The notes under the pieces: generated by a model
What the model was told of the DNA's origin: nothing
Database searches by the model: none
Seen by the model: only the letters and a program-made list of their open reading frames with translations
Program-made: the position numbers and the translations under genes
Part shown: positions 195 to 27,300 of the stretch, piece by piece
How the letters are laid out: each line of letters begins with the position of its first letter
How positions within the stretch are numbered: position 1 is the stretch's first letter
Source: Deltaproteobacteria bacterium
Lineage (GTDB): Bacteria > Desulfobacterota > Desulfobacteria > Desulfobacterales > JAFDMD01
DNA: 64,000 nt
Reading direction: 5' to 3'
NCBI GenBank assembly: GCA_019306065.1
Contig: JAFDMF010000013.1
Location: 12,324-76,323 of the forward strand

Positions 195-548
195 ATGATG
201 ACAATTGACGAAATGAAAAACAATTTGGAATTACTCAACTCAATTGATTGGGACATGACTCCCGAAGAGGCGGTTACTCTCTATTTGGAATGGGGTAATA
301 ATTGGGCGCATGGAAAAGTGGTGCGCTCAAAGAATGACGTAAGCCATTACTTTGTCGTAAACAACTGGAAAGACGAGCCTATTATTTATTTGATAAAAAG
401 AAATTCGGAAGAGGCGGTAGAACTTGCGGCTTTTAAAATGCCGGAACATATAAAACAAAGCTTCCTTAACTCCGTTTCGGGAATAAAAGGAGTTTATCCG
501 GTTACCGGCGAAGTAAAAAAATGGTTGCAAAAACTGCTTAAAAAATAA
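195..548 (+). CDS. hypothetical protein (117 aa)
   Basis: Intact ATG ORF from the track. No family recognised. The overlapping antisense ORF 327..683 is judged a shadow. Confidence 0.45.
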   Translation: MMTIDEMKNNLELLNSIDWDMTPEEAVTLYLEWGNNWAHGKVVRSKNDVSHYFVVNNWKDEPIIYLIKRNSEEAVELAAFKMPEHIKQSFLNSVSGIKGVYPVTGEVKKWLQKLLKK

Positions 549-626
549 AAACCATCCTCGCTCCTTTATAAAAAAAGACGGGGAGATTGAAAACATATTA
601 TTATAACTCAAAAGAAAGGAGGAGCA

Positions 627-782
627 ATGAAAAAATACGAATGCCCTTGCGGATATGTTTATGATCCTGCCGCAGGAGATCACGAAAACGGAGTAGCTCC
701 CGGAACAGCTTTTAAAGACCTACAGGGAGACTGGGTTTGCCCCCTTTGCGGAGCCAATAAAGACGCTTTCGAGGAAGTGTAA
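627..782 (+). CDS. rub: rubredoxin (51 aa, below ORF-track cutoff)
   Basis: Hand translation: [51 protein letters not shown]. Shows the classic GYVYDP and DWVCPxCG rubredoxin motifs. SD aaaggagga lies upstream. The first knuckle is CPC, not CxxC. Confidence 0.8.
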
Positions 783-872
783 TATAACTTTTTAAAAAGG
801 AAACGTCCGAGACTAATTGCAGATGCAAAAAATAATTATTATAAAAAATACAACTAAATAATAAAGAGATTT

Positions 873-941
873 ATCGCTTCGCTCGCCAGGACGGGAAGCA
901 ATTTTTCTTATTTATCATTATCAACAGGCGACGCGAGAAAA
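873..941. repeat. family-3 repeat copy (opposite orientation)
   Basis: atcgcttcgctcgccaggacgggaagcaatttttctt matches the reverse complement of 25080-25116 at roughly 30 of 36 positions by eye. Confidence 0.5.
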
Positions 942-1004
942 AATTGTATAAAATAGGATAGTTTTACTAATATAACCATAAAAAAGTAAGAAAGGAAATA
1001 GATA

Positions 1005-1556
1005 ATGAAAAAACATACATGTTCAATATGCGGTTATGTTCACGAAGGAGATACGTCTCCTGCAAAATGCCCCCAATGCGGAGCAAGTTCCGATAAATTC
1101 AAAGAGCAATCCTGCTGCGGCTGTAGCGAAGGCTGGGCGGACGAACATATAATAGGCGTAGCAAAAGATATAGACCCGGAAGTAAAAGAAGGATTAAAAG
1201 CCAATTTTACAGGAGAATGCACCGAAGTCGGAATGTATCTTGCGATGAGCAGACAAGCAGATAGAGAAGGCTACCCCGAAATAGCCGAAGCTTATAAAAG
1301 AATAGCTTTTGAAGAGGCGGAACATGCCGCAAAATTTGCAGAACTACTCGGAGAAGTGGTTTTATCGGACACCAAAAAGAATTTGGAAATGAGAGTAGCC
1401 GCGGAAAGAGGAGCCTGCAAAGGCAAAAAAGAGATAGCAACAAAAGCAAAACAGCTAAATTATGATGCAATACATGACACCGTCCATGAAATGTGCAAAG
1501 ATGAAGCAAGACACGGACAGGCTTTTGAAGGACTTTTAAAAAGATATTTCAAATAA
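1005..1556 (+). CDS. rbr: rubrerythrin with N-terminal rubredoxin-like Cys4 domain (reverse rubrerythrin arrangement)
   Basis: N-terminus has CSICG...CPQCG. The C-terminal ferritin-like four-helix region carries EEAEHAAKF and DEARHGQAF (ExxH diiron motifs). Confidence 0.85.
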
Positions 1557-1634
1557 AATCTTGCAAAACCGCCTATAAAAAAGAGGAAAACAAAAGAAGG
1601 AGAAAAAGGCGGAGCATCCGAAAAATATCCGGAT

Positions 1635-1751
1635 GTGAGCGTTGATAAAGACTGCCGCTGCTACTGCCAAACATGCAATAAATATGTAGAACTGAAAAAA
1701 GGCGACAGAATACCTCCTTGCTGCGGTAAACTGATGGAGATATTGGATTAA
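1635..1751 (+). CDS. desulforedoxin-like small Cys-rich protein (about 38 aa, putative GTG start)
   Basis: Hand translation: VSVDKDCRCYCQTCNKYVELKKGDRIPPCCGKLMEILD. The CxxC-14 residues-CCGxxM pattern matches the desulforedoxin fold signature. No ATG is in frame, so the start is uncertain. Confidence 0.45.
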   Translation: MSVDKDCRCYCQTCNKYVELKKGDRIPPCCGKLMEILD

Positions 1752-2104
1752 AAATAAAATTTTAATTACTTAATAACTATAAGGGATAAAACTAATGTCA
1801 AGATGACCAAACGACGACCGTAGCGATAGTATGAATCCAAATAGCGACGAGTATAGAGGAGACGACGAAGACGAATAATTTTGTCGACAAAAAAAATTAT
1901 GAAAGGAGATATCCAAAGTTTTTTGCGTAGCGGCTCTTATCGATGAGGAAATAATTTTCGGCAAGTTTTGCGTTAAAAAATGTGAACTGTTTGAAAGCGA
2001 AGCTTGAGTTTTCACATTTTTCGCAAAACGCAGCCGAAAATCCGAAGCGATAAGCAAAAAACGGAGCAAACAACTTGGACATCTCCGAAATAAATATAAA
2101 CAAA

Positions 2105-2166
2105 AGAATGATAAAATTTCGTTGGATAACAAACTACGAAGTTATCCAGCAAAATTTAAACAGAGG
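2105..2166 (+). repeat. family-2 element, minimal copy E (hairpin ggataac-N10-gttatcc plus conserved SD leader)
   Basis: aatgataaaatttcgttggataacaaactacgaagttatccagcaaaatttaaacagagg aligns with both ends of copy C. Confidence 0.65.
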
Positions 2167-2172
2167 GGAAAA

Positions 2173-2649
2173 ATGGCGTTTGAATACAACATCGAAGAAA
2201 TATTAAAAATAGCGGAGCAAATCGAAGAAAACGGCGTTAAATTCTATACAGACGCAGCGGATGCCGCATCCGATTCTGACGCCAAACAACTATTGCTTAA
2301 TTTAGCGGATTTTGAAAAAGAACATAAAAAAGCGTTTGCTTCAATAAGAGAAAACCTTTCCGAAAAAGAAAAACAAAACCTAATATTCGATCCCCAAGAC
2401 GAATCCGCTCAATACCTAAAGGCGCTTGCGGATATGCGCGTATTTTTTAAAAAACAGATCGATATCAAAAACATAGAAGAGATTTTAAAAGAGGCGTTAA
2501 TTGCAGAAAAAGATTCAATACTTTTTTATCAAGCAATGAAACCGCTTATATCCGAGCAATCCGGAAAAGAAAAAATCCAAATCATCATAAAAGAAGAAAT
2601 GAAACACATTAACATACTTACCGAAAAACTAACCGCTTTAAAAAATTAA
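2173..2649 (+). CDS. ferritin-like / rubrerythrin-family diiron protein (158 aa)
   Basis: Contains FEKEHKKAF and KEEMKHI ExxH motifs. The internal ATG at 2173 is preceded by SD cagagggg. The track start at 2122 lies inside a repeat hairpin. Confidence 0.6.
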   Translation: MAFEYNIEEILKIAEQIEENGVKFYTDAADAASDSDAKQLLLNLADFEKEHKKAFASIRENLSEKEKQNLIFDPQDESAQYLKALADMRVFFKKQIDIKNIEEILKEALIAEKDSILFYQAMKPLISEQSGKEKIQIIIKEEMKHINILTEKLTALKN

Positions 2650-2673
2650 TAATCGGCAAATTACGGAGAAAAA

Positions 2674-3204
2674 ATGTTATACTCAAAAACAGTAATGGAT
2701 CATTTTAAAAATCCAAGAAACGTGGGAATAATAGAAAACGCGGATGGAATAGGCGAAGTAGGCAACCCCCTTTGCGGCGATATGATGACAATATATCTGA
2801 AAATAGAAGACCAAAAAATTAAAGAGATAAAATTCCAAACCTTCGGATGCGGTTCCGCAATAGCCGTTTCCAGCATACTCACCGAACTTGCTATACATAA
2901 AACCATAGAAGCGGCTAAAAAAATTACAAATAAAGATGTAGCCAAAGCTTTGGAAGGGCTGCCTAAAAACAAACTCCATTGCTCAAACCTCGGCGCAGAC
3001 GCTCTTCAGCTTGCTATAAAAGACTATGAAGCAAAAAAATCCGGCAAAACAAAACCGGAACCAAGAAGAGAAACCGAAGCCCACATACCAATGCATAAAA
3101 AAGAGGGACAAAAACAATGCTATTGTCCTTATTGCGACGCAAAACTATCCAAAAAAACAACCTTTTGCAAAGCATGTCAATCGGAACTGGATCAGGAGCA
3201 TTAA
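2674..3204 (+). CDS. iscU: IscU/NifU-type Fe-S scaffold with C-terminal zinc-ribbon-like tail
   Basis: Has NPLCGD, FGCGSAIA and LHCSNL, the three scaffold Cys motifs. The tail reads CYCPYCDAKLSKKTTFCKAC. Confidence 0.8.
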   Translation: MLYSKTVMDHFKNPRNVGIIENADGIGEVGNPLCGDMMTIYLKIEDQKIKEIKFQTFGCGSAIAVSSILTELAIHKTIEAAKKITNKDVAKALEGLPKNKLHCSNLGADALQLAIKDYEAKKSGKTKPEPRRETEAHIPMHKKEGQKQCYCPYCDAKLSKKTTFCKACQSELDQEH

Positions 3205-3273
3205 AACTTAATAAAAAATTAATCTGCAATGAGAAATCTCATAAAACGCTATAGGAGTAAAACACAAAACATA

Positions 3274-4434
3274 ATGAAAAAAATCAATCTTGATCATATA
3301 TCTGTAAACCCAATGCCGCCCAAAGTTCAGGATGCGATGATAAAAGCAATAAAACAAAACTACGGAAACCCCTCCAGCTTAAACGCCGGCGGCGAACAAG
3401 CCGCGGAAGTTTTGGAAAACGCCCGCGGACAGGTCGCCAAACTTATAAACTGCAAAAACAATAAAGAGGTGATATTTACATCCGGCGGAACCGAATCGGC
3501 AAACCATGCAATAAAAGGAATAGCCTTTGCAAATGCAGAAAAAGGAAAACATATAGTAACTTCAAACATTGAACACAGCTCCGTAATCAGAAGTATAAAA
3601 CGCTTAACCCAGCTCGGATACAAAGCAACCTCCGTATCCGTAGATAAAAAAGGAAGAGTCAACCCTAAAGACATAAAAAAAGCGCTAACAGACGAAACAA
3701 TACTCGTATCCGTAATGCACGGAAACAATGAAATCGGAACAATACAGCCAATAGAAGAAATAGCCAGAATAACAAAAGAAAAAAAAATACCCTTCCATTC
3801 CGACGCAGCGAATACCGTAGGAGTAATACCGATTGACGTTCAAAAACTCGGAGCGGATATATTAAGTTTTGCTTCAAACCCGTATTACGGACCAACCGGC
3901 GTAGGCGGGCTATATATCCGAAGAGGCTTAAATATATGGCCAATGTTAGACGGAGGCATACAGGAAAAAAACAAACGCGCAGGAACCGAAAATTTAATCG
4001 GAATAATAGGTATGGGAGCCGCCGCAAAACTCGCAATGGAAAAAATGGATAAAAGAAGCGAACATCTTAAAAACCTTAAAAAACTTCTTATATCCGAACT
4101 GCCTTCATACATAGACGAATACATAATAAACGGAGACCCGGAAAACAGCCTTCAGAATCTAATATCTGTAAGCGTAAAATACATCGAAGGGGAAAGCATA
4201 CTATTAATGCTTGAAGATGCAGGCTATATCGTATCTACTCGTTCCGCATGCGCCACAGGTTCTTTGCGCGCATCCCATGTGCTTCTATCCATAGGATTAA
4301 AACATGAAGACGCTCAGGGAACAATCGTGATAACTCCGGGAATCGAAAATAAAAAAGAGGATATAATCGGCTTTCTTAAAGCTTTAAAAAAAATAGTAAC
4401 AACATTAAGGGAAATATCGCCACTTTATAAATAA
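3274..4434 (+). CDS. NifS/IscS-family cysteine desulfurase homologue lacking the PLP-binding lysine
   Basis: Has NNEIGTIQP, HSDAANTVG and the SACATGS active-site Cys loop. The SxSGHKxYGP motif reads SFASNPYYGP instead. The ATG at 3274 has SD taggag; the track start at 3229 is probably too early. Confidence 0.75.
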   Translation: MKKINLDHISVNPMPPKVQDAMIKAIKQNYGNPSSLNAGGEQAAEVLENARGQVAKLINCKNNKEVIFTSGGTESANHAIKGIAFANAEKGKHIVTSNIEHSSVIRSIKRLTQLGYKATSVSVDKKGRVNPKDIKKALTDETILVSVMHGNNEIGTIQPIEEIARITKEKKIPFHSDAANTVGVIPIDVQKLGADILSFASNPYYGPTGVGGLYIRRGLNIWPMLDGGIQEKNKRAGTENLIGIIGMGAAAKLAMEKMDKRSEHLKNLKKLLISELPSYIDEYIINGDPENSLQNLISVSVKYIEGESILLMLEDAGYIVSTRSACATGSLRASHVLLSIGLKHEDAQGTIVITPGIENKKEDIIGFLKALKKIVTTLREISPLYK

Positions 4435-4967: not shown

Positions 4968-5065
4968 GAATGATTAATTTTGTTGGATAACAAAGAAATT
5001 TGTTCGTTTGCAAGGCAATGCAAAATTTTAGCGCAACGCCGAAAATGAGCAAAATAGAAAATTGC
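4968..5065 (+). repeat. family-2 element, partial copy D, upstream of gajA
   Basis: aatgattaattttgttggataacaaagaaatttgttcg...acgccgaaaatgagcaaa shares the left end and internal blocks with copies B and C. Confidence 0.5.
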
Positions 5066-5131
5066 GCAAAGGTCTTACATTTTTCTTTTAGACTATTTAT
5101 TCTGTTTTTCATTCATTTAAAAGGAAACATA

Positions 5132-7201
5132 ATGAAAATTACAAAAATTAAAGTTAAAAACTACAGGCTATTAAAAAATTTTTCTATTGATCTGGAAGAG
5201 GAGCTGTCTTTAATTGTCGGAAAAAATAATTGCGGAAAAACTTCCTTGTTATCAATAATGAATAAATCTATAAATTCGGATAAATTTTTATTCGATGATT
5301 TTAATTTAGATTTTAAAGCCGAATTAGAAAAACTAATTGAAAAACATATGTCAAAGGAAACAGAGAAAGAATATAAGCCGGTTGGCATAACTTTAAAATT
5401 ATTTATTGAGTATAATGAAAATGACAATCTTGCTAATATTAGCAAATTTATGATGGATTTAGACCCGGATAATAAAACCATAGTTCTTTTATTTGAATAT
5501 ATTTTGACGTTAGATAAGCTTAAACAGTTACGAGAGGATTTTAAGAAATTTAAAAATAGTAATCGCGATTTAGATTACTTTCTTCAAAAAAAACATTCAA
5601 ATTATTTTCGCGTATGTAAAAAAACAATCGAATTTAACATTCAAGATAAGAAAGAAAATGAGGACGTTTTTATTGACTTGAAAAAAGAAGAAAAAGCGCT
5701 CAAAGATGTAATTAATTATCAATGTATTAACGCCGATAGGGATGTTTCCAATAAAGAATCCGGCAAGCCTTTATCTCTGCTATCCTCAAAAATTTATAGA
5801 AAAATAGAAGCCGATGAAAGACAAAAAAAGGGAATTGAAGGTTTTAAAAACGCTTTGAGCAGCACGGATAAAGAATTAGGAAAAATTTATGAAAATATAT
5901 TTCAGGATGTAATAAAAAAAGTTAAAGACTTTGGAGGAATCAAGCCGGATGATACAAAAATTAAAATAACTTCAACATTACAGCATAAAGAACTGTTAGA
6001 GGGGAATACAACTGTTATGTATGAGCATGACGACAAGCATGATTTGCCGGAAAGTTATAATGGATTAGGCTATATGAACCTAATAAGTATGATTTTTGAG
6101 ATAGAAATATTATTGAATGAATTTAAAAAAAAGAAAGACGAAAAACCTGCGGATATTAATATACTTTTTATTGAAGAGCCGGAAGCTCATACGCACCCTC
6201 AAATGCAGTATATATTTATCAACAATATAAAAACGTTATTAAAAGACGGAATAAGTCGAGACGATGGAGAAAAAAGAGATTTGCAGTATATTATTAGCAC
6301 TCATTCTTCTCACATTGTAGCGGAAAGTGATTTTGATGACATCAAATACTTAAAAATAGAAAACAATGGCGTAATAGCTAACAATTTAAAAAATTTGAAA
6401 GAGGAATATAAAGACGAACAACAAAATTATAAATTTTTAAAACAATATCTAACTCTTCATAGGGCGGAATTGTTTTTTGCAGATAAAGCAATCTTTATCG
6501 AAGGAGATACCGAAAGAATTCTACTGCCGGCAATGATGAAAAAAATTGATCAGGATGATCCTAAAAACCCATTGCTTTCTCAAAATATATCAATCATAGA
6601 AGTTGGGAATTACTCTCAAATTTTTGAAAAATTCATTGATTTCATCGGGGTTAAATCTTTAATTATTACTGATATAGATTCAGTGACGGGCGATATAAAA
6701 AAATGTAGGGTGGCGGACAAGGACGCAACAATTACAACTAACGCTTCTTTAAAATTCTTTTACGGATCGAATAAACTTGAAGATTTTAAATGTGTTGCAT
6801 TGGAAAATATGGCGCTCAAAAAAAATTCCAAAAAAAAATGGGTTAAAAATAAAAACGGGCATTTGCTTTGCGTATATCAAACAGAAGAAGAGAATTCAAA
6901 AAAAGAAAAATATCATGCAAGAAGTTTTGAAGATTCTTTTTTTCATATAAATCGTCAATTTATTACTGATAATATTGATAATAAAAATAATTTCAAAAGT
7001 TTAAAAAATAAAAACTGCCTTAAAGACACAAGTAAAGACGCTTACGATCTATCAGAAGAATGTATAAATAAAAAACCGGCGTTTGCTATAGAGATTCTAT
7101 TAAATAGCGAAACTGACGATAAAGGAAAACAATTTACTAACTGGAAAATACCGGATTATATTAAAAAAGGATTATTATGGTTGAAGAAAGATCAAAATTA
7201 G
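5132..7201 (+). CDS. gajA: OLD-family ATP-dependent endonuclease (ABC-type ATPase + TOPRIM), Gabija GajA-like
   Basis: Starts MKITKIKVKNYRLLKNF. Walker A is GKNNCGKTS and Walker B is ILFIEEPEAHTHPQ. TOPRIM motifs are IFIEGDTERILLP and IITDIDS. The track start at 5000 falls in a repeat element; ATG 5132 follows SD aaaggaaa. Confidence 0.8.
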   Translation: MKITKIKVKNYRLLKNFSIDLEEELSLIVGKNNCGKTSLLSIMNKSINSDKFLFDDFNLDFKAELEKLIEKHMSKETEKEYKPVGITLKLFIEYNENDNLANISKFMMDLDPDNKTIVLLFEYILTLDKLKQLREDFKKFKNSNRDLDYFLQKKHSNYFRVCKKTIEFNIQDKKENEDVFIDLKKEEKALKDVINYQCINADRDVSNKESGKPLSLLSSKIYRKIEADERQKKGIEGFKNALSSTDKELGKIYENIFQDVIKKVKDFGGIKPDDTKIKITSTLQHKELLEGNTTVMYEHDDKHDLPESYNGLGYMNLISMIFEIEILLNEFKKKKDEKPADINILFIEEPEAHTHPQMQYIFINNIKTLLKDGISRDDGEKRDLQYIISTHSSHIVAESDFDDIKYLKIENNGVIANNLKNLKEEYKDEQQNYKFLKQYLTLHRAELFFADKAIFIEGDTERILLPAMMKKIDQDDPKNPLLSQNISIIEVGNYSQIFEKFIDFIGVKSLIITDIDSVTGDIKKCRVADKDATITTNASLKFFYGSNKLEDFKCVALENMALKKNSKKKWVKNKNGHLLCVYQTEEENSKKEKYHARSFEDSFFHINRQFITDNIDNKNNFKSLKNKNCLKDTSKDAYDLSEECINKKPAFAIEILLNSETDDKGKQFTNWKIPDYIKKGLLWLKKDQN

Positions 7202-9063
7202 AGCCTGAAGTTCAAAAAATATTTAAACATATAGATAATGGCGATAATTTTTTGCTGAGCGGCGGCGCAGGCAGCGGAAAGACCTATTCATTAGTGCAGG
7301 TTGTCAAACAGGTAATATCGAAAAATCCGACCGATAGAATTGCCTGTATGACCTATACAAATGCCGCTGTAAGAGAGATTGAAGAGAGAGTAACCTATAA
7401 AAACTTATTCGTATCTACCATTCACAATTTTTTGTGGGATAATATAAAACATTTTCAGAAAGTATTAAAAAATTCTTTGATTAATTTAATAAATGACGAG
7501 GAATCTAAAATCAAAAACCCGGAAGATGCGCCTGTGCTGGAATCTTATTTTGATCAATGTAAAGAAGGCATACAATACAAAGAATATTTAAAGTTAAAAG
7601 ATGGAATTATCTCTCATGATGAAATTTTGATATTGGCTAATTATGTCTTTAAAAACTATCCTAAACTTTGCGATATTCTAAAGGATAAATTTAAATTTAT
7701 CTTTATTGATGAATATCAAGATGCCGATAAAAATTTTATCCAAATCCTTCTTATTCATTTAAAACAAAGCAAGAAACAAAATATAATCGGTTTTTTTGGC
7801 GACGCTATGCAATCTATTTATGATAACGGCGTCGGCGATTTGGATCTTTATAAAGGCGAAGTAAAAGAAGTAAAAAAAAAGCAGAATAGGAGAAACCCGG
7901 AATTAATTATTGAGCTTGCTAATAAACTAAGAACCGATGGAATTAAACAAACCAAGTCAGAGGATACCAACGCTCCGAATATGATGAAAAATAGCAGGAT
8001 TAAAAAAGGTAATATTAAATTCTATTACTCTCAAAATAAAGATAAAGATAAAGATATAGAAAGAGTAAAGCAGAAGACAGGTTGGGACTTTGAAGATGCT
8101 AAACAGACAAAAATACTAAATTTAACTCATAATTTAATAGCTCCGAAAGCGGGATTTTCTAATCTCATGGAAATATATGATAAAGATAGAATCATAAAAT
8201 ATAAAAATAGAATAAAAAAATATATTAAAGATAAGGATATTAAAGATGATTTTTCCGAAAAAACTTTTGGAGAAGTAATTGAGATTTTATCAGACAAAGT
8301 TAAACCAACGAAGGCAATGAAAGATTTTATTAATTCTAATCAAGAATTATATAAATCTGCGAAAGGATATAAGTACCAATCTTTTGCTAAAATATATTTA
8401 GATAAAGAATCTTTAATTGACGACAAAAAGCAAGATAAAGACGAGGAGAATAAAAAAGGTTCTAAAAGGGACGATTTAATAAAGCATCTTTTTAAGATCC
8501 AAAATAATATCTCATTTTACAATGCAAAACAATTCAACGACTTTTTAAGAGCAACGGAATATAAAATAACTTCAATTCAAGATAAAAAAGAGTTAAAAGA
8601 CAACATTATTGAATTAACAGAAGTCGGAGATAAAACCATAGAAGAGATTATAAACAAAGCCGATGAATTTGGAATTTGTAAGAAAGACGATAAGCTTGCA
8701 AGATTTATATCCGAAAAAGAATATCTTTATAATCGCGTAAAAAAAATAAAATTTTTCGAGTTTCAAAAACTATACAATTATCTTGAAGGCTACACGCCGT
8801 TTTCTACGCAACATAAAGTTAAAGGGACAGAATTTGATAATGTTTTAGTAATTTTGGATAATGGCGGATGGAATCATTATAACTTTAAAGGATTATTTGA
8901 AAATAATGCTTCCAATAGCGTTAGAAAACGTACCGAAAAAATATTTTATGTTTGTTGCACTCGCGCAAAAAAAAATCTATCCGTATTTTTTAATAGCCCA
9001 TCAGAAGCAGTAATCACAAAAGCGAAAGATTGGTTTAGAGAAAAGAATGTCCGCGAAATATAA
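7177..9063 (+). CDS. gajB: UvrD/Rep-family SF1 helicase, Gabija GajB-like
   Basis: Walker A is SGGAGSGKTYS; motif II is FIFIDEYQDAD. Later helicase motifs are KVKGTEFDNVLVIL and YVCCTRAKKNL. Overlaps the upstream nuclease gene by 25 nt. Confidence 0.8.
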   Translation: MVEERSKLEPEVQKIFKHIDNGDNFLLSGGAGSGKTYSLVQVVKQVISKNPTDRIACMTYTNAAVREIEERVTYKNLFVSTIHNFLWDNIKHFQKVLKNSLINLINDEESKIKNPEDAPVLESYFDQCKEGIQYKEYLKLKDGIISHDEILILANYVFKNYPKLCDILKDKFKFIFIDEYQDADKNFIQILLIHLKQSKKQNIIGFFGDAMQSIYDNGVGDLDLYKGEVKEVKKKQNRRNPELIIELANKLRTDGIKQTKSEDTNAPNMMKNSRIKKGNIKFYYSQNKDKDKDIERVKQKTGWDFEDAKQTKILNLTHNLIAPKAGFSNLMEIYDKDRIIKYKNRIKKYIKDKDIKDDFSEKTFGEVIEILSDKVKPTKAMKDFINSNQELYKSAKGYKYQSFAKIYLDKESLIDDKKQDKDEENKKGSKRDDLIKHLFKIQNNISFYNAKQFNDFLRATEYKITSIQDKKELKDNIIELTEVGDKTIEEIINKADEFGICKKDDKLARFISEKEYLYNRVKKIKFFEFQKLYNYLEGYTPFSTQHKVKGTEFDNVLVILDNGGWNHYNFKGLFENNASNSVRKRTEKIFYVCCTRAKKNLSVFFNSPSEAVITKAKDWFREKNVREI

Positions 9064-11880: not shown

Positions 11881-14800
11881 ATGTCTAAAGATATAATAGG
11901 CTCCGTAGTAGTTGTAGGAGGCGGAATAGCCGGCATGCGTTCCGCTTTGGATTTGGCAAATTCCGGATATTATGTTTATCTTGTAGAAAAGTCTTCGTCA
12001 ATCGGCGGAGTAATGTCTCAACTTGACAAAACTTTTCCTACTAACGACTGCGCTATGTGAATTATCTCGCCTGTACTGGTCGAGGTCGGCCGGCATTTAA
12101 ACATAGAGTTATTAACTTTAAGCAAGATAAAAAACATAAAAGGAGAAGCGGGGAATTTTGACGTAGAAGTTATAAAAAAACCTAGATATGTAGATGAATC
12201 AAAATGCGTAGGCTGCGGATTATGCGCTGAAAAATGCCCAAAAAAAGTAACAGATACATACAACATGGGGCTTCAAAAAAGAAAAGCCATATATGTTGAG
12301 TATGCTCAGGCAGTCCCTTTAAAATATGCAATAGATGCAGATAATTGTATATATTTTCAAAAAGGGAAATGCGGAGCATGTAAAAAATTATGTCCTGCCG
12401 AAGCTATTGATTTCGAGCAAAAAGAAGAAACGATTACCATCAACGCAGGAGCGATTATATTTTCAAGCGGCTTTAATCCTTTGAATCCTGCCGATCTGGA
12501 TTTATATCAATATAATGACCGTCCCAATGTTATTACTTCTATGGAAATGGAAAGAATATTATCTGCATCTGGCCCTACAGGCGGGCATCTTGTAAGACTT
12601 TCGGACAAAAAAGAGCCTAAAAAAATAGCGTGGCTACAATGCGTAGGCTCAAGAGACATGAATAGATGCGGCAACCTTTATTGTTCCTCCGTATGTTGCA
12701 TGTATGCCATTAAAGAAGCGGTAATAGCAAAAGAGCACTCAGAAGAAGGGTTAGACTGCGCTATATTCTATATGGACATCAGAACCCCTGGCAAAGAATT
12801 TGAAAAATTCTATAATAATGCAAAGGAAAAAGAGGGCGTCCGCTTTATAAAAAGTAGAATCCATTCTATAGAACATGTGGTAAATACGGATGATCTTAAA
12901 GTTCGTTATTTGGATGAAGATAATAATCTGCAAGGCGAAATTTTTGATATGATCGTTTTGTCCGTAGGTATGGAGACGCCTAAAGATATTGTAAAACTTT
13001 CTCAAAAGCTTGGAATCGAACTTTCCAAAGGAAACTTTTGCAAAACTTCTACATTCAATCCTTTGGAAACATCTATTGAAGGCATATTGGTAAGCGGCGC
13101 GTTCGGCGGCCCAAAAGATATACCTCAATCGGTAGTATATGCTTCAGGAGCGGCTTGCGCTGCAGGCGAAATTTTAAATTCCGCGCGAAATACTCTTACC
13201 AAAACAGTCGAACCTGTTCCGGAAACAAATGTAATAGGCGAAAGACCCAGCATAGGGGTTTTTGTTTGCAAATGCGGCAGCAATATAGCCGGCGTAGTTG
13301 ATGTTAGCAAAGTTGTGGAATATGCGGCAAAACTTCCTTTTGTAGATTATGCGGCGGAAAATATCTATTCCTGCTCTCAGGATAATCAGGATGGTATGGC
13401 GCAGCTTATAAAGGAGAAAGGATTAAACAGAGTTGTAGTCGCAGCCTGCACCCCAAAAACTCATGAGCCTCTATTTCAGGAAACCCTTATATCCGCAGGT
13501 TTAAATAAATACCTATTTGAAATGGCAAATATAAGAAATCATAATTCTTGGGTTCATAAAGACAGTCCCGAACTTGCCACCCTAAAAGCTATGGACCTTG
13601 TTCGTATGGCGGTTGAAAAAATTTCTATTGCAAAACCGTTGTCCGAAGCGGAGCTTGAAGTAAATCAGAACGCAATGATTATAGGCGGCGGCGTAGCCGG
13701 AATAAGCGCGGCTTTAGGGCTTGCCAATCAGGGCTACGATACATATCTGATAGAGAAAAGCGGCGAGTTGGGCGGAGAAGCAAAAAAAATATTTAAAAGC
13801 GCAAATAACGAAAACATTCAAAAAGAGCTTTTATCTCTTATTGAGGCGGCTCAAAACAATAATAAGCTTCATATCAGGCTTAACAGCAGTATCGTAAATG
13901 TGGAGGGCTTTGTAGGAAACTTTAAAACCGTAATAGCTTCCGATAATAAAGAGGAAAGCATAGAACACGGCGTATCTGTAATAGCTACAGGCGGAACCGC
14001 TTTAAAGCCTACCGAATATCTATACGGAGAGGATAAAAGAATAATAACAAGCTTAGATCTTGATAAAAAATTTATTAATAACGATAACTCTTTAAAAGGT
14101 CTGAAATCTGCGGTTTTTATTCAATGCGTAGGATCAAGAGAGCCGAATCGCCCTTACTGTTCCGGAGTATGCTGCACGCATTCTATAACTAACGCATTAG
14201 AGCTTAAAAAAATAAACCCTGATATGAATATATTTATCCTATACAGAGATATAAGAACTTACGGAGAAAAAGAATATTTATATCATCAGGCAAGAGAAGC
14301 CGGAATTATCTTTATAAGATACCTTGCAAGCGACAAGCCGAATATTAAAATCGAAAACGGAAAAATTTCGGTGACCGTCCAGGACACCTCTTTAAATCAA
14401 TATCTTGAAATGGAAGCCGATCTTGTAACTCTTGCTTCCGCCATAGTTGCAAATAAAGATCAGAAGCTTGCGAAATTCTTTAAAATCCAGGTTAATGAAG
14501 ACGGATTTTATATAGAAAAACATGCAAAGTTAGGTCCCTGCGAGTTTGCTACGGACGGGGTATTTTTATGCGGTTTGGCTCATTATCCGAAACCCATAGA
14601 CGAATCTATAGCTCATGGCAAGGGAGCCGCCGCAAAAGCTTTAACCCTTCTTGCTAAAAAGAAAATACGCACGTCAGGAACAATAGCGGATGTCGAGCCT
14701 CTTAAATGCAGTTCTTGCGGAGTATGCGTTTCTATATGTCCTTATTCAGCGCCCTCTTTTATACCGGACGACGCAAGATTCTTTGCCGGAAAGGCTCAGA

Positions 14801-14931
14801 TTAACCCCGTATTATGCAAAGGATGCGGATTATGCGTGGCATCTTGCAGATCCGGCGCATTACGATTAAAAGGATTTGATAATGATCAGATATTTGCCCA
14901 AATAAACGCCGCATTTGAAGAGGCGGCATAA
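11881..14931 (+). CDS. hdrA: large tandem HdrA-like flavoprotein, selenocysteine-containing (UGA at 12058-12060)
   Basis: ATG 11881 gives [19 protein letters not shown]...[19 protein letters not shown], in frame with track ORF 12265..14931. A second GxGxxG ([15 protein letters not shown]) lies mid-protein. There are multiple Cys clusters and a C-terminal 2x[4Fe-4S] motif. Confidence 0.85.
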
Positions 14932-14975: not shown

Positions 14976-15404
14976 ATGTCTGACTGGGAGCCGAAAATTT
15001 TGGCTTTTTTATGTAACTGGTGCAGTTACGGCGCAGCGGATCTTGCGGGAGTAAGCAGAATGCAGTATCCTCCTAACTTTCGGATAATAAGAATACCTTG
15101 TACCGGACGAATGAGCCCTAAATTTATTTTGTCCGCTTTTAAGCAGGGGGTGGACGGGATATGGGTATCAGGCTGACATCCCGGAGAATGTCATTACCTG
15201 GAAGGTAATTATTATGCGCGTCGTAAATTTACTTTATTTAAAGGACTTTTGGAACATATAGGCATTGAAGAGGAACGGCTGCATTTTTCGTGGGTATCTT
15301 CGGCAGAATCCACCAAATTTATTAAAGTAGTAAATGAAGTAATTTCCTCGGTAAAAAGTTTAGGACCTAATCAAAGATTTATAAATAGAATTAAGGCAGC
15401 GTAA
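14976..15404 (+). CDS. mvhD: MvhD/FlxD-type [2Fe-2S] subunit, selenocysteine-containing (UGA at 15174-15176)
   Basis: Track ORF ends ...GIWVSG then UGA. The frame continues HPGECHYLEGNYYARRKF...WVSSAES to TAA at 15402. The UGA aligns with the Cys of the conserved SGCHxGxCHY motif. Confidence 0.85.
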
Positions 15405-16355
15405 ATGGTAGAATATATTAGTAAAATACAAAAAATATCAAAAAAAATACTCCAAGATGGCAAGGTTGATATAATAATAGGTTTTTCAAGCGGAAGCTTG
15501 CCTATGGCAAGCAGACCTTCTTTTATAAAAAGCCCCGAAGATGCAGACAAATTAATATTTGACGGCAATTGCGGAATCAATCTTGCAAATTATTTGGCAG
15601 GCAGAAAAGAGAAAATAGGTATAATAGCAAAAGGCTGCGATTCTAGAAACATAGCGCAGCTTATAGTTGAAAATAAAATAAAAAGAGAGCAACTTTTTAT
15701 TATAGGCGTTCCATGCTTTAAAATGATAGATAAAAGAAAAATCTCTCTGTTATTTGAAGATGAGATTACCCAAGTAACCGAAGTAGGCGATAAGGTTATA
15801 GTAAAAGGAAAAGCTAAAGAAAAAACATTTAACCGAGAAGATCTGTTGCAGGCAAACTGCATTACCTGCACACATCATAATCCAGTTATATATGACGAAT
15901 TGGCGGGCGAGCTAATAAAAGAGCCTGATCAAAAAGACGGGTATGAGGACGTTAAAAAAATAGAGGCTATGAGCTCGGATAAGCGCTGGAGCCATTTTAG
16001 CGAAATGTTATCCGCATGTATCAGATGTTATGCATGCAGAGATGCATGCCCTTTATGCTATTGCCCCACATGCTTTGTTGACGAAGCTGCGCCGCAATGG
16101 GTTGGAAAAAGCGCGGATAATCAAATAGACGTAAAAACGTTCCATATATTGCGGGCGTTCCACTGCGCGGGAAGGTGTACCGATTGCGGAGCATGCGAAA
16201 GAGCCTGTCCTATGAGTATAAAAGTAAGGGAATTTACAAGAAAACTCAATTCCGACGCTATGCGGCATTACGAATGGGAAGCGGGATTAACTACCGATAA
16301 ACGTCCCTTATTGGATAATTTTAGAGTAAACGACTATCAAGATTTTATAAAATAA
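15405..16355 (+). CDS. Fe-S cluster protein (FrhB/FlxC-like, 2x CxxCxxCxxxCP)
   Basis: Motifs CIRCYACRDACP and CTDCGACERACP. The start abuts the mvhD stop. Confidence 0.7.
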   Translation: MVEYISKIQKISKKILQDGKVDIIIGFSSGSLPMASRPSFIKSPEDADKLIFDGNCGINLANYLAGRKEKIGIIAKGCDSRNIAQLIVENKIKREQLFIIGVPCFKMIDKRKISLLFEDEITQVTEVGDKVIVKGKAKEKTFNREDLLQANCITCTHHNPVIYDELAGELIKEPDQKDGYEDVKKIEAMSSDKRWSHFSEMLSACIRCYACRDACPLCYCPTCFVDEAAPQWVGKSADNQIDVKTFHILRAFHCAGRCTDCGACERACPMSIKVREFTRKLNSDAMRHYEWEAGLTTDKRPLLDNFRVNDYQDFIK

Positions 16356-16370
16356 AAGGCAAAACCAATT

Positions 16371-17329
16371 ATGAAGCTCGTAAGTATAAATAAAGAACTT
16401 TTAAAAATTCGGATAAAATAGACATAAATAATCTGACGTTTTTAAATACCCGTCTTTCGCCCAAATCTTTAGTTTTTCCTCAAACCGAAAAAATGTTCTC
16501 TTATACTACCGATACAAACAGCGAAGACTGCAATATAATCAAACCTATAAATAAAAAAAATGTAAAACAGGCTATTCTCGGCATAAGACCATGCGACTCC
16601 GCATCTTTCGGAATAGTTGAAAAAAATTTTGATACCGAAGAGTATAAAGATCCCTTTTGGATAAATTCTTATAAGGCTACAACATTTATAGGGCTTGCAT
16701 GCGATAATCCGGATTCTACATGCTTTTGCACAACCGCAAATTCCGGTCCTTTTGACGAAAAAGGGCTTGATATACTTTTGATAACTTCAGGCGATTCCTT
16801 TATCGGCAAAATTCTTACCGAAAAAGGAGAGGAAGCCGCAAAGATTGCGGGCTGGACAACAGAAGCGCCCGCCAATTCTGTTTCGGCGATAGAAAAACAA
16901 AAAAAAGAGGCAGAATCTAAAATAAGCTCCTCTATTTCGACGGATAAAATAAAAAATAAAGATACGTTAGAACTATATAACGCATCTTTTTGGGAAGAAG
17001 AGGCGTTTGCCTGTATCAACTGCGGAACATGCGCTTATGTATGTCCGACATGCTGGTGTTTCGACATACAGGATGAAATTTCCGATAAAAAAGGAATCCG
17101 TATGAGAAACTGGGATAGCTGCATGTTTCCCCTTTTTACTCTGCACGGTTCCGGGCATAACCCCAGAGATTTAAAATATCAGAGAGTCCGACAAAGATTT
17201 ATGCACAAGCTTAAATATTATCAGGATAAATATAAAAGCGGAATCCAATGCGTAGGATGCGGTCGATGCATACGTCTTTGCCCTGTAAATATAGATATAC
17301 GCAGCATATGCGATATAATGAATTCGTAA
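16371..17329 (+). CDS. AsrA / sulfhydrogenase-beta-like 4Fe-4S protein, apparently frameshifted near its 5' end
   Basis: Has SPKSLVFPQTEKMF, GIRPCD, CINCGTCAYVCPTC and CVGCGRCIRLCP. The conserved N-terminal region (16394-16492) has no start codon. ATG 16371 is in another frame and stops at 16419 after the A-run. Confidence 0.65.
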
Positions 17330-17392
17330 TAACAATTAGAAACAAAATAAAAAAGATCAGATATAATAAAACAATTAAGATGGAGTACAAAA

Positions 17393-18238
17393 GTGCAGAA
17401 TCCATATTTACCATACCCTGTTCGTATAGACGACATAGTAACCGAAACAGAAGATAAAAACTTAAAAACATTTAAATTCGTATTTATAAACCCCGAAGAG
17501 GAAAAAAAATTTTCTTATAAAGCAGGTCAATTTGCGGAACTTTCTGTTACGGGAAAAGGGGAGATACCCATAGGAATAGCCTCTTCTCCTACGGAAAAAG
17601 GATTCGTAAAATTTACGGTTAATAAAGTAGGACTTATTACAACCCATCTCCATTCTATGAAAAAAGGGGATATCATGGGAATTCGAGGTCCTTTGGGCAA
17701 TTATTACCCATGGGAGCTTCTCGAAGGAAAAAATATTGTTATAATAGGCGGAGGATTCGCTTTTACAACCCTTAGATCCTCCATAATATATATGCTTGAG
17801 CCCTCAAACCGAGACAAGTTTAAAGAGATTAATGTAGTATATGGCGCAAGAGTCCCCGGTATGCTTTTATACAAAGACGAGCTTAGCGCGTGGAAAAAGC
17901 GGGATGATATTAATATGCACATAACCGTAGATTCTACCGATGATCCGAATTGGAAATATAACGTAGGATTTGTTCCCGCCATAGTAGGCGAAAAAGTTCC
18001 CAAAGGAAACAAAGATACTTATGCCATAGTATGCGGGCCTCCGGCTATGATTAAATTTACCCAGCCCGTATTAGACCAGCTCGGTTACAGCCACGACAAC
18101 ATAATAATGTCTTTGGAAAATAGAATGAAATGCGGAATTGGAATGTGCGGCAGATGCAACATAGGCGAAAAATTCGTATGCAAAGACGGACCCGTATTTA
18201 CCCTTTCTCAGCTTAATAAAATGCCGAAAGAGTATTAA
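17393..18238 (+). CDS. FAD/NAD(P)-binding oxidoreductase with C-terminal [2Fe-2S] (AsrB / sulfhydrogenase-gamma / FlxA-like)
   Basis: Ferredoxin-reductase-like layout with a CGIGMCGRCNIG...CKDGPVF tail. GTG start preceded by ggag. Confidence 0.75.
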   Translation: MQNPYLPYPVRIDDIVTETEDKNLKTFKFVFINPEEEKKFSYKAGQFAELSVTGKGEIPIGIASSPTEKGFVKFTVNKVGLITTHLHSMKKGDIMGIRGPLGNYYPWELLEGKNIVIIGGGFAFTTLRSSIIYMLEPSNRDKFKEINVVYGARVPGMLLYKDELSAWKKRDDINMHITVDSTDDPNWKYNVGFVPAIVGEKVPKGNKDTYAIVCGPPAMIKFTQPVLDQLGYSHDNIIMSLENRMKCGIGMCGRCNIGEKFVCKDGPVFTLSQLNKMPKEY

Positions 18239-18274
18239 TATGTCATATAGAGTAAAAGTTATTAGAGATATTTT

Positions 18275-18595
18275 ATGTCTCCTGCCGATAATAATATAAA
18301 ATTAATATTACTCGGTTTCGGAGTTGCTTTGTTTAGCGCGTGTATAGGCATTGGAGGCGGAACCCTGCTAGTATCGTTGCTCATGTCTATATTCAATTTC
18401 GATTTCAAAAAAGCGGCGGCTACATCTTTGGCTACTATAATACCAATAAGCTTTACCGGAGCGGTTGTCGGTTCCATAATATCGGGGAATCTTCCGGGTC
18501 CGATAATAAAAAAAATATTCGGTATTTTTTTATTTTTAATAGCATTAAATTATATAATCGAAGCTTTTTACCGAAAACACGGGTCAGTTATTTAA
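18275..18595 (+). CDS. short TSUP (TauE/SafE)-like membrane protein, about half normal length
   Basis: Motif GIGGGTLLVSLL, typical of the TSUP family. Only 106 aa. Confidence 0.45.
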   Translation: MSPADNNIKLILLGFGVALFSACIGIGGGTLLVSLLMSIFNFDFKKAAATSLATIIPISFTGAVVGSIISGNLPGPIIKKIFGIFLFLIALNYIIEAFYRKHGSVI

Positions 18596-18660
18596 CTCCC
18601 GTAGAAAAAAGCCGTATTCTATTTAATTATAGCATTGGATTAAAAAAAGGCGTAACAATT

Positions 18661-19377
18661 ATGGATTTATATAACAGATTAAAAAAAGCTTTGGAAGATA
18701 AGATAAAAGAATATAATCTTTCCGGGCAAAATATCAGCATTCGATGCAAAATTCTTTCGGCTTCAGAGGCTATAGGAAAGCCGTCGGATGAAGATTATCC
18801 CATAATAAAAGGAAAAGAGGTAATGGTAGAAGCCGTTTTTAAAGGCGCAAAAGGACAGGCTTTTACCGAAGAGTTTGAAAATACCGATTACTCCGTAGAA
18901 GATTTACTAAAAATAAGCTTAAATTCAAATAAAAAAAGAGCAAGCTTTATAGCCGCATTAAACGCCATTTTCAGACATCTTAAACTTTGCGATAAAACGG
19001 TTCATTGTAAAGATAATGAACCTAAAGAATGCGCGTGCGGTTTATCCGATATTGGACGCGGTTATAATAATATTTTACTTATAGGGTATCAGCCCAGATT
19101 TCTTGAAGCGCTTATAGCGGATCATAATGTAAGAGTTTTGGATATGGATAATGATAACATAGGCTCAAAGCGTTTCGGCATATTAATCGAATCCCCTGAT
19201 ATAACGAAGGATGCCGTAAAATGGTCTGATTTAATATTTGCCACAGGTTCTACCATAGTAAACGGCACAATCGACAATTTTATCAATAAAAACAAGCCTG
19301 TTACATTCTACGGAGTTACAATTTCGGCTGCCGCAAAAATATTGAATTTAAAAACATATTGTTATTGCGGGCATTAA
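18661..19377 (+). CDS. DUF364-like Rossmann-domain protein (putative metal-chelation family)
   Basis: Internal ATG of track ORF 18340..19377. The upstream part of that ORF overlaps the TSUP gene in another frame. Confidence 0.5.
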   Translation: MDLYNRLKKALEDKIKEYNLSGQNISIRCKILSASEAIGKPSDEDYPIIKGKEVMVEAVFKGAKGQAFTEEFENTDYSVEDLLKISLNSNKKRASFIAALNAIFRHLKLCDKTVHCKDNEPKECACGLSDIGRGYNNILLIGYQPRFLEALIADHNVRVLDMDNDNIGSKRFGILIESPDITKDAVKWSDLIFATGSTIVNGTIDNFINKNKPVTFYGVTISAAAKILNLKTYCYCGH

Positions 19378-25499: not shown

Positions 25500-26609
25500 A
25501 TGGCATACCCATTGAATAAGATTACCATAAAAGGTTTTAAGTCTATAAAGTCTCTTGAGAAATTTGAGCTTAAAAGCATAAATGTTCTTATAGGAGCAAA
25601 CGGAGCGGGAAAAAGTAATTTTATAGATTTTTTTCGTATGATTCGCGCTATGATGGAACTTCCTTTGCCCGGGCTGAAAAGCCCGAGTTTACAAACTTAT
25701 GTGGCGGACGGAGGAGGAAGCGACGATTTTTTGTTTAACGGACCTAAAATAACGGAAAATATTGAAACGGAGCTGATGTTCGGAGCTAACGGCTACCGTT
25801 TTAAACTTGCTCCTACCTCGGATGAAACCTTTATGATAAATGATGAGGCGAATCATTATATACATTATTCTCAAGGTTGGTATAATTTGGGAAGCGGGCA
25901 TTATCGTCCCAAATTGCTTGAAAATATGAAGAGTAAATCTGAAGTTCCGCGTCATATTTATAACGCTATTGATTCATGGAGAATTTATCATTTTCACGAT
26001 ACAAGCAAATTTTCTCCTATGCGCCGTTCCGAATCTGTTTATGATAATGATTATTTTAGGTTTGACGCTGCCAATATTGCCCCTTTTTTACTTTATTTGA
26101 AAGCTAGAAAAAAGGATGTTTATGACCGTATTATAGATACAATCCGTTTGACTGCCCCTTTTTTCGAAAATTTTATTTTAAAGCCGGATTTAAACGAAAA
26201 AGCGCGTCTTCTTTGGCATCATAAAGGTTTCGATTATCCGCTTAAACCGAGTCATTTATCAGACGGAACTCTTAGGTTTATTTGTTTGGCGGTTGCATTA
26301 TTGCAGCCTTATTTGCCTTCTACTATGATTATTGACGAGCCGGAATTGGGGCTTCATCCTTATGCGATTGAAATTTTGGCGGAACTTATTAAGTCTGCCG
26401 CAAACAAAACTCAGCTTATAATATCTACTCAATCTCCGGCTCTTGTAGATTTTTTTGAGCCGCAAGATATTGTTGTGGTTGATAGAAATAAGGGAGAATC
26501 TATTTTAAAACGGCTTGATAAGGCAGATTTTAATTTGTGGCTTGAGGATTATTCGCTCGGAGAGCTCTGGCGAAAAAATATTATTGAGGGAACGCCGGGT
26601 TATGAATAG
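25500..26609 (+). CDS. ABC/SMC-like AAA ATPase (AAA_21/COG4637-like), first gene of a two-gene cassette
   Basis: Starts ITIKGFKSIKS. Walker A is GANGAGKSN, signature-like LSDGTLRF, Walker B MIIDEPELGLHP, then IISTQSP. Confidence 0.8.
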   Translation: MAYPLNKITIKGFKSIKSLEKFELKSINVLIGANGAGKSNFIDFFRMIRAMMELPLPGLKSPSLQTYVADGGGSDDFLFNGPKITENIETELMFGANGYRFKLAPTSDETFMINDEANHYIHYSQGWYNLGSGHYRPKLLENMKSKSEVPRHIYNAIDSWRIYHFHDTSKFSPMRRSESVYDNDYFRFDAANIAPFLLYLKARKKDVYDRIIDTIRLTAPFFENFILKPDLNEKARLLWHHKGFDYPLKPSHLSDGTLRFICLAVALLQPYLPSTMIIDEPELGLHPYAIEILAELIKSAANKTQLIISTQSPALVDFFEPQDIVVVDRNKGESILKRLDKADFNLWLEDYSLGELWRKNIIEGTPGYE

Positions 26610-27300
26610 AATTACGATTAATATTATTGTAGAAGGGCAGACGGAACAACATTTTGTAAAAACTGTGCTTGCGCCTTATATGTCTGCAAAAGGAATTGAT
26701 TTGTATGCTTCAATACTCGGAAAACCCGGTCATAAAGGGGGTAATGTTTCTTTTAAAAGGGTAAAAAAGCATATAGAAATTTTTTTAAAACAGCGGCAAG
26801 ATACTTATATATCTACTATGCTTGATTATTTTAAAATCGATTCGGATTGGACCGGAAAAGCGGAAGCGGAAGATCGGATAAAAGGCGGTTTGTCTGTTAC
26901 CGCCGAGGATAAAGCAAATATTTTGGAAAATGCAACTTTTAAGGAGATTGAAAAGGATTTATCGGACTATAATGTAAAAAAACGTTTTATTCCTTATTTT
27001 TCGATGTATGAGTTTGAGGCTCTTCTTTTTAGCGATGCAAATATATTGGCTGAAAAAACAAATATAAAGGTATCCGAAATTAGTAAAATACTTAAAGATT
27101 ATAAAGATAATCCTGAAGAGATAGACGAAGAACCTGCAAAGGCTCCGGGAAAACGACTTATTGCGTTAATGCCCGGATACCGAAAAATTGCTATGGGCAA
27201 GACTGTTGCCGAAGCCATAGGCATTGAAGATATAAGAAAAAAATGCTTCCATTTTAACGGATGGTTACAAAAATTGGAGGATATTAAAGTTAATAATTGA
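26602..27300 (+). CDS. DUF4276-like protein (possible TOPRIM-like fold), second gene of the cassette
   Basis: ATG at 26602 overlaps the ATPase stop (ATGAATAG). N-terminus MNRITINIIVEGQTEQHFVK...YFSMYEFEALLF resembles the DUF4276 family as I recall it. The track start at 26515 is inside the upstream gene. Confidence 0.65.
   Translation: MNRITINIIVEGQTEQHFVKTVLAPYMSAKGIDLYASILGKPGHKGGNVSFKRVKKHIEIFLKQRQDTYISTMLDYFKIDSDWTGKAEAEDRIKGGLSVTAEDKANILENATFKEIEKDLSDYNVKKRFIPYFSMYEFEALLFSDANILAEKTNIKVSEISKILKDYKDNPEEIDEEPAKAPGKRLIALMPGYRKIAMGKTVAEAIGIEDIRKKCFHFNGWLQKLEDIKVNN

Follow-up and report, generated by a model that had tools for sequence, protein, structure and literature searches.

Re-annotation of an hdrA-mvhD locus with two in-frame UGA codons, very probably read as selenocysteine, in an uncultured Desulfobacterota-like organism

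Introduction

HdrA and FrhD/MvhD belong to the most numerous selenoprotein families of the Bacteria; they occur predominantly in the Deltaproteobacteria, and fusions of two hdrA genes are also on record (PMC1794560). In Desulfobacterium autotrophicum HRM2, selenocysteine (Sec) is present in the products of hdrA1, hdrA2, hdrL1 and hdrL3 as well as of mvhD1, mvhD2, mvhD3 and mvhD5, and an mvhD gene follows all hdrA and hdrL loci except hdrA4 (PMC2702500). For Desulfococcus multivorans, the Sec-hdrA and Sec-mvhD genes were found as split locus tags (dmul_C02770/80 and dmul_C28840/50; PMC5109826). Loci in which Sec-mvhD comes after Sec-hdrA have been reported for D. autotrophicum, D. multivorans and Syntrophobacter fumaroxidans (PMC2702500, PMC5109826, PMC1794560), and a 2026 review tabulates the HdrA and MvhD families with a CxxU motif (PMC13188914). 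In this study, an hdrA-like gene and the mvhD gene that follows it, each interrupted by one in-frame UGA codon, were analyzed in a stretch of 64,000 nucleotides (64 kb; the window) of contig JAFDMF010000013.1. The finding is a further example of a phenomenon known before and amounts to the correct re-annotation of two well-known selenoprotein families. A preliminary description of the hdrA gene, made from the sequence alone, had referred to HdrA as a known selenoprotein of the Methanococcales and the Deltaproteobacteria, which is confirmed by the literature (PMC1794560, PMC2702500, PMC5109826).

Results and Discussion

Reading frame of the hdrA-like gene

The gene and its internal codon are located as follows:

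11881..14931, forward strand: hdrA-like coding sequence, 1016 amino acids (aa) with probable Sec at codon 60 (translation, Pfam, PDB alignments, NCBIfam)
12058..12060, forward strand: in-frame UGA, very probably read as Sec (U60), on the Cys197/X column of solved HdrA and TGA in relatives

The frame opened by the ATG at 11881 comprises 1016 codons and a terminal TAA (14931). Translation identified the TGA at 12058-12060 as the sole internal stop and the ATG as being in frame with the open reading frame (ORF) 12265..14931, as the preliminary description had stated. In the ORF list the frame appears as two entries, one of 59 aa (11881..12060) and one of 888 aa (12265..14931). The number of codons hidden from the list had been given as 128, in agreement with the coordinates ((12265-11881)/3 = 128).

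The start at 11881 agrees with the starts of full-length Cys homologs, and the sequence GAGGA is located at 11864-68, 13-17 nucleotides (nt) 5′ of the ATG. Upstream of the internal ATG at 12265 no Shine-Dalgarno sequence was found, and a protein started at this position would have neither the first ferredoxin cluster nor the GxGxxG motif of the Rossmann fold.

The same TGA with its flanks is present in three assemblies: the window and, as further public assemblies from this population, L001 (ENA) and L002 (NCBI). The identity to the window is 99.85% for L001 over the aligned stretch including hdrA and 100% for L002, and in both assemblies the gene callers gave the 59-aa and 888-aa fragments. 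A sequencing or assembly error in this metagenome-derived contig could be suspected from an indel of 79 nt that separates the window from the sister assembly elsewhere in the operon. However, the three assemblies do not differ at the TGA or in its flanks, which argues against a read or assembly error, and the codon is also TGA in dozens of unrelated genomes. The probability of such an error is regarded as negligible.

Homology and domain architecture of the hdrA product

For the protein alignments the stop codon was replaced by Cys. Residues 4-428 align unbroken across the UGA to solved HdrA structures (9sfi_A, E = 1e-119; 5odc_A, E = 1e-117). HdrA homology thus extends to either side of the codon. 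The UGA is located on the column of Cys197 of 5odc_A (FPTNDCSIC) and of the X of 9sfi_A (FPTDDCAMX), corresponding to the motif DC-x-x-C/U; the comparison with Cys- and Sec-type HdrA proposed in the preliminary description thus places the codon on the expected column. The X in 9sfi_A is read here as Sec197 of the Methanococcus maripaludis HdrA, because the residue number and the enzyme match those described in PMC13518236. In the cryo-EM structure of the M. maripaludis Hdr-Vhu-Fwd complex, the density between Sec197 and a cysteine fits a selenylsulfide between the flavin adenine dinucleotide (FAD) and cluster A3 (PMC13518236).

Two modules could be distinguished. In the first (approximately residues 1-440), a ferredoxin domain is inserted into an FAD domain, and the C57-x-x-U60 motif is present (Pfam). 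The second (approximately 455-1016) is a complete second HdrA-like unit without a C-x-x-U motif: the C-terminal half (441-1016) aligns to positions 9-243 and 323-656 of 8rvu_a with E = 1.6e-120, and the motif is gone at the site matching the methanogen sequence KTFPTLDCSMC. The C57-x-x-U60 pair is confined to module 1. The predicted size of about 1016 aa with two flavin modules was borne out by this alignment. The nearest NCBIfam model was HdrA2 (NF040770; E = 7e-285) with 947 bits, which does not reach the curated cutoff of 1100. Since the score is below this cutoff, the protein is classified from the model match as HdrA-like rather than as an equivalog of the methanogen HdrA2.

Conservation of the UGA codon in relatives

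A protein search was evaluated for its best 120 matches among 5.8 billion proteins (P0001-P0120). Among these, 110 begin 3′ of position 60, at assorted ATG, TTG and GTG codons. The remaining 10 are full-length, and all of them (10 out of 10) have a Cys at position 60. The N-terminal clipping of these 110 entries is a systematic annotation artefact of the HdrA-long family.

In addition, 80 genomic loci of relatives were compared, mostly from Desulfobacterota and including Desulfosudis oleivorans, Desulfoluna spongiiphila, Desulfospira joergensenii, Desulfonema and the Olavius Delta4 symbiont. After de-duplication, 72 hdrA sites have TGA as the homologous codon, and 28 have TGC or TGT. The position of the UGA on the conserved catalytic Cys/Sec column, together with the TGA in 72 distinct genes, is more than expected by chance. 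With homology spanning the codon, we consider it highly probable that the UGA at 12058-12060 encodes Sec, as had been proposed, and that the product has a length of about 1016 aa.

Many relatives carry a tandem of Sec-hdrA, Sec-mvhD and a second Sec-hdrA (L006, L018, L021, L032, L040, L048, L058, L075). In these loci all three genes contain the TGA, and the same 18-nt core of the hairpin described below is found in both hdrA paralogs.

Predicted SECIS hairpin of hdrA

A hairpin was identified downstream of the UGA:

12076..12093, forward strand: predicted selenocysteine insertion sequence (SECIS) of hdrA, CUGGUCG (12076-82), loop AGGU (12083-86), CGGCCGG (12087-93)

The 7-bp helix begins 16 nt 3′ of the UGA, and the loop begins 25 nt after the U of the UGA. 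The segment 12076-12095 is GC-rich against a window average of 35.8% GC. The pairing of 12076-82 with 12087-93 is the minimum-free-energy fold of RNAfold. In isolation, the hairpin has an energy of -10.2 kcal/mol (z = -2.6), and one of 200 shuffled sequences was as stable.

The 18-mer CUGGUCGAGGUCGGCCGG is identical in 56 of the 72 UGA-type hdrA sites, covering several Desulfobacterota families and paralogous copies, while neighbouring synonymous sites are saturated. The identical core occurs in Desulfosudis oleivorans, Desulfoluna spongiiphila, Desulfospira joergensenii and the Olavius Delta4 symbiont. The same peptide, LVEVGR or LVECGR, is also encoded by the Cys-type genes, but there the codons vary. 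For codons +5 to +11, the third-position entropy averages approximately 0.4 bit in UGA-type genes versus approximately 1.4 bit in Cys-type genes. This drop of 1.00 bit was reached by none of 5,000 label permutations. Control windows of equal width in the same sequences differ by at most 0.13 bit, which argues against an artefact of relatedness. Over 71 UGA-type sequences, the helix has a standard pair in 97.2% of the cells, and the pair-preserving changes are exclusively one-sided C-to-U changes resulting in G-U pairs. Since the synonymous freeze is specific to UGA-type genes and coincides with the hairpin, 12076-12093 is taken as the predicted SECIS element of hdrA.

In the preliminary description, a different pairing within this GC-rich stretch had been suggested, namely of atctcg (12064-69) with cgaggt (12081-86) across an 11-nt loop. 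Both segments are present and six pairs are possible in the window sequence, so that the choice of the GC-rich stretch was retained and the pairing was not. The fold differs from the minimum-free-energy structure and pairs in 76.8% of the cells in the 71 UGA-type relatives, which is below all 500 column shuffles. In 48 of the 71, its closing G-C pair cannot be formed, because the 5′ arm varies freely at the third positions of Ser and Ile codons. It overlaps the conserved helix 12076-82/12087-93 and is mutually exclusive with it. The helix 12064-69/12081-86 was rejected as the SECIS, for which it is a very improbable candidate.

Several relatives have other SECIS shapes at the same sites. These are the Desulfocapsa/Desulfopila group (L050, L052, L054, L056, L060, L063-L065, L072, L079), a second hdrA type with the motif CAI-U-I or CSI-U-I (L009, L024, L036, L081) and a set of mvhD genes (L014, L016, L023). 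One variant is UGAGUGC-GGUCG-GCACUUA, located about 5 nt further 3′ (whole 57-nt fold, -12.2 kcal/mol), and a second is GGAUGUC-GGUC-GGCAUCC. In some mvhD genes a third form is present, a long stem of CCGGGCGA...UCGCCCGG with -25.5 kcal/mol (z = -2.2). In a Candidatus Adiutrix metagenome-assembled genome (MAG; L025, 4436-4495), a Cys-type (TGC) hdrA keeps CTGGTCGAGGTCGGGCGG, i.e. the SECIS core with one stem-breaking C-to-G change. It has the appearance of a leftover SECIS in a gene that recently changed from Sec to Cys.

The second UGA in mvhD

The gene downstream of hdrA contains the second in-frame UGA:

14976..15404, forward strand: mvhD/flxD-like gene (FlpD family), 142 aa with predicted Sec at codon 67 (translation, Pfam, PDB)
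15174..15176, forward strand: second in-frame UGA, U67 of MvhD in the predicted product, context VSG-U-HPGECHY, on a Cys column
15193..15209, forward strand: predicted SECIS hairpin of mvhD, AUUACCU, loop GGA (15200-02), AGGUAAU (fold and synonymous freeze)

The ATG at 14976 is preceded by AGGAG. In public assemblies the gene is called as a fragment of 66 aa (ORF 14976..15176). The family model PF02662 (FlpD) spans the UGA (residues 8-130) with 182.2 bits compared to a gathering cutoff of 22.3 (E = 4e-54). The product matches 5odc_D (E = 2e-50), and the Sec-containing VhuD 9sfi_K is among the PDB matches. For the VhuD model NF045873 it scores 147 bits versus a cutoff of 215. In solved MvhD, the residue aligned with the UGA is the first Cys of the segment GGCHLGDCHY.

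Of the distinct sites in the mvhD genes next to hdrA in relatives, 32 carry TGA at this position, and 13 have a Cys codon (TGC or TGT). The synonymous freeze of codons +6 to +11 amounts to 0.57 bit, a value reached by one of 5,000 permutations, and the AUUACC/GGUAAU arms are retained in 29 of the 32 UGA-type sites. The hairpins of hdrA and mvhD are in the same register, each with its end 36 nt from the U of the respective UGA, as expected if one SelB reads both. On the basis of these alignments, the mvhD UGA almost certainly encodes Sec as well. As an independent second case 3 kb downstream with the same hairpin spacing, it supports the Sec reading of hdrA. A scan of the window for further UGA-interrupted frames revealed no credible case except hdrA and mvhD. 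The 59-aa and 888-aa calls of hdrA and the 66-aa call of mvhD in the public assemblies are annotation artefacts.

The near-invariant 18-nt core of hdrA may reflect more than SelB binding, such as gene conversion or repeated lateral transfer of a cassette with the N-terminal part of Sec-hdrA, or selenium-sensing attenuation, in which low selenium would result in the 59-aa product only; or a selenium-ligated Fe-S cluster could be formed via the Sec of MvhD. Taken together, these options are considered unlikely. The first Cys of the CHxGxCHY motif, in whose place the Sec of MvhD stands, is presumably part of a [2Fe-2S] site. If this holds true, selenium might be a ligand of an Fe-S cluster in a bacterial Flx-type complex.

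Weighing of the selenocysteine reading

Several results weigh against the Sec reading and the SECIS assignment. The folding energy in contexts of 43-91 nt is no better than that of shuffled sequences (z between -1.0 and +0.3 after either UGA). No double-sided compensatory change was found in the hdrA hairpin among the 71 sequences, so that its support consists of one-sided wobble changes and of conservation rather than of covariation in the classical sense. A match to a curated Rfam family was not obtained, either at the gathering thresholds or with E values up to 10. Finally, no selA, selB, selD or tRNA-Sec was detected in the 64-kb window, searched using ARAGORN and Rfam for the tRNA and, for about 40 of its ORFs, NCBIfam, or in L083 and L086, two scaffolds from this population that flank the window. 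The absence of the Sec machinery is uninformative, as it is expected for less than 100 kb of a multi-Mb genome.

The same absence in the available sequence, together with the split calls of hdrA in public assemblies, would also fit a true stop at the TGA, resulting either in a pseudogene or in a split gene with a 59-aa peptide and an 888-aa protein from ATG 12265. However, HdrA conservation continues on both sides of the codon, the homologous codon is TGA as well in many genomes of Desulfobacterota (72 distinct sites), and the UGA-specific synonymous constraint acts 3′ of it. In addition, the 888-aa product would start without a Shine-Dalgarno sequence and would be devoid of the FAD-binding GxGxxG fold. 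A true stop is therefore judged to be highly unlikely.

As a further alternative, the UGA could be reassigned to, or read through as, Trp, Gly or Cys without Sec, by an altered code or near-cognate suppression. This would be consistent with the rare use of TGA as a stop codon in the window, where it ends three of 44 genes (TAA 34, TAG 7, TGA 3). Among these, however, uvrA and rluD stop at TGA precisely at the ends of their family models, which indicates that UGA terminates translation in this genome. Furthermore, the window has two in-frame UGAs only, both on Cys/Sec columns of known selenoprotein families, and a UGA-specific hairpin is not expected under a simple code reassignment. There is thus very little to recommend this explanation, and decoding as Sec is preferred for both genes. 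By the same evidence, the organism is probably competent for Sec synthesis and insertion.

Downstream genes and proposed complex

Three further genes follow mvhD in the same orientation:

15405..16355, forward strand: 316-aa Fe-S protein (FlxC-like), Pfam Fer4 families; its start adjoins the mvhD stop
16371..17329, forward strand: HydB/AsrA-like Fer4_22 protein (FlxB-like), Pfam and NCBIfam; 5′ end frameshifted in the window
17393..18238, forward strand: HydG/AsrB-like protein (FlxA-like), Pfam FAD_binding_6, NAD_binding_1 and DHODB_Fe-S_bind, and NCBIfam

The FlxC-like protein (15405..16355) has no match in NCBIfam. In the FlxB-like gene, 79 nt present in L001 (7386-7464) are missing at 16397/16398 of the window, which frameshifts its 5′ end. 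The protein has a length of 345 aa in L001, whereas the window has a short ORF at 16371 and a second part at 16493-17329. This difference is due either to strain variation or to an artefact of the assembly. The FlxA-like protein is presumed from its domains to be the NAD(P)H entry point. Genes for HdrB or HdrC (CCG domain) were not found by Pfam or NCBIfam, neither in 15405-19377 nor elsewhere in the window.

From these comparisons we infer the insertion of Sec, the binding of SelB, a redox role of Sec and the physiological partners of the complex. The UGA at codon 60 would be decoded as Sec by SelB with Sec-tRNA(Sec), and SelB would be recruited by the hairpin 12076-12093 (loop AGGU) of the coding sequence in the mRNA, 16 nt 3′ of the codon. 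Codon 67 of mvhD would be recoded likewise through its own hairpin (15193-15209). By analogy with the methanogen HdrA, Sec60 and Cys57 may form a C-x-x-U redox pair beside the FAD of flavin module 1. The gene content suggests a Flx-like module, in which electrons from NAD(P)H could be transferred via Fe-S clusters and MvhD to the FAD of HdrA. HdrA, MvhD and the FlxC-, FlxB- and FlxA-like products would probably constitute an NAD(P)H-linked, flavin-based electron-bifurcating or confurcating complex of the Flx/Hdr type.

Other features of the window

A complete Gabija anti-phage pair is located at 5000-9063, directly upstream of glyS. It consists of GajA (OLD-type AAA_15 and TOPRIM; PADLOC E = 1.6e-291) and GajB (UvrD helicase; E = 6.5e-237). 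Two products encoded at 25500-27300, an AAA ATPase and a protein of 261 aa, correspond to HEC-01, a candidate defence system in PADLOC (HEC-01A, E = 8e-139; HEC-01B, E = 3e-68).

An oxygen/iron stress cluster at 195-4434 comprises a DVU0772-family protein, rubredoxin, rubrerythrin-like proteins and NifU/NifS. Upstream, the flanking scaffold L083 carries cytochrome bd, a flavin reductase-rubredoxin fusion and Fur. This gene set is typical of anaerobic sulfate reducers.

Significance of the re-annotation

The practical value of this result is in annotation quality, since the public calls of 59 and 888 aa for hdrA and of 66 aa for mvhD are wrong. Inferences on Flx/Hdr bifurcating complexes in sulfate reducers rest on clipped proteins without the FAD-binding N-terminus and the catalytic Sec. 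With 110 of the 120 nearest entries clipped, domain and pathway inferences for these complexes are affected. The use of Sec by an uncultured low-GC Desulfobacterota-like organism is indicated indirectly. The knowledge of HdrA, MvhD or Sec decoding is unchanged.

Comparison with known systems

The locus is most similar to the Sec pairs of the Desulfobacteraceae and syntrophs, with which it shares the group at the lineage level, the order hdrA-mvhD, Sec in both predicted products and the split gene calls. Compared by description with the published Sec-hdrA/mvhD loci, it differs in the organism, which is an uncultured low-GC MAG, and in the exact downstream partners.

Over approximately 425 residues, module 1 resembles the methanogen HdrA of M. 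maripaludis (9sfi, Sec197) and Methanothermococcus thermolithotrophicus (5odc, Cys197). In contrast to the methanogen protein of approximately 655 aa, the bacterial protein is a two-module fusion of 1016 aa, its module 1 has no N-terminal cluster domain, and no hdrBC genes are adjacent. The archaeal SECIS is located in the 3′ untranslated region, whereas the element predicted here is a bacterial in-frame hairpin.

As in the E. coli fdhF-type SECIS, the hairpin lies inside the reading frame shortly 3′ of the UGA. The fdhF element has a bulged U in the upper stem and a GU in the apical loop. In the hairpins of hdrA and mvhD the stem is short (7 bp), the loop has 3-4 nt and the bulged U is missing; the GU is present in the AGGU loop of hdrA. 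In agreement with the bSECISearch model, a G is among the first two loop bases, and the distance between UGA and loop of 22-23 nt is within the 16-37 nt of the model.

A further related system is the FlxABCD-HdrABC NADH dehydrogenase/heterodisulfide reductase of Desulfovibrio vulgaris, reportedly described by Ramos et al. in 2015. In both cases, according to domain-level matches, genes for a FlxD (MvhD)-like protein, two Fe-S proteins and a FlxA-like protein adjoin hdrA. Compared to D. vulgaris, the order in the window is hdrA-flxD-C-B-A, and the locus differs from FlxABCD-HdrABC in having HdrA without genes for HdrB and HdrC in the window.

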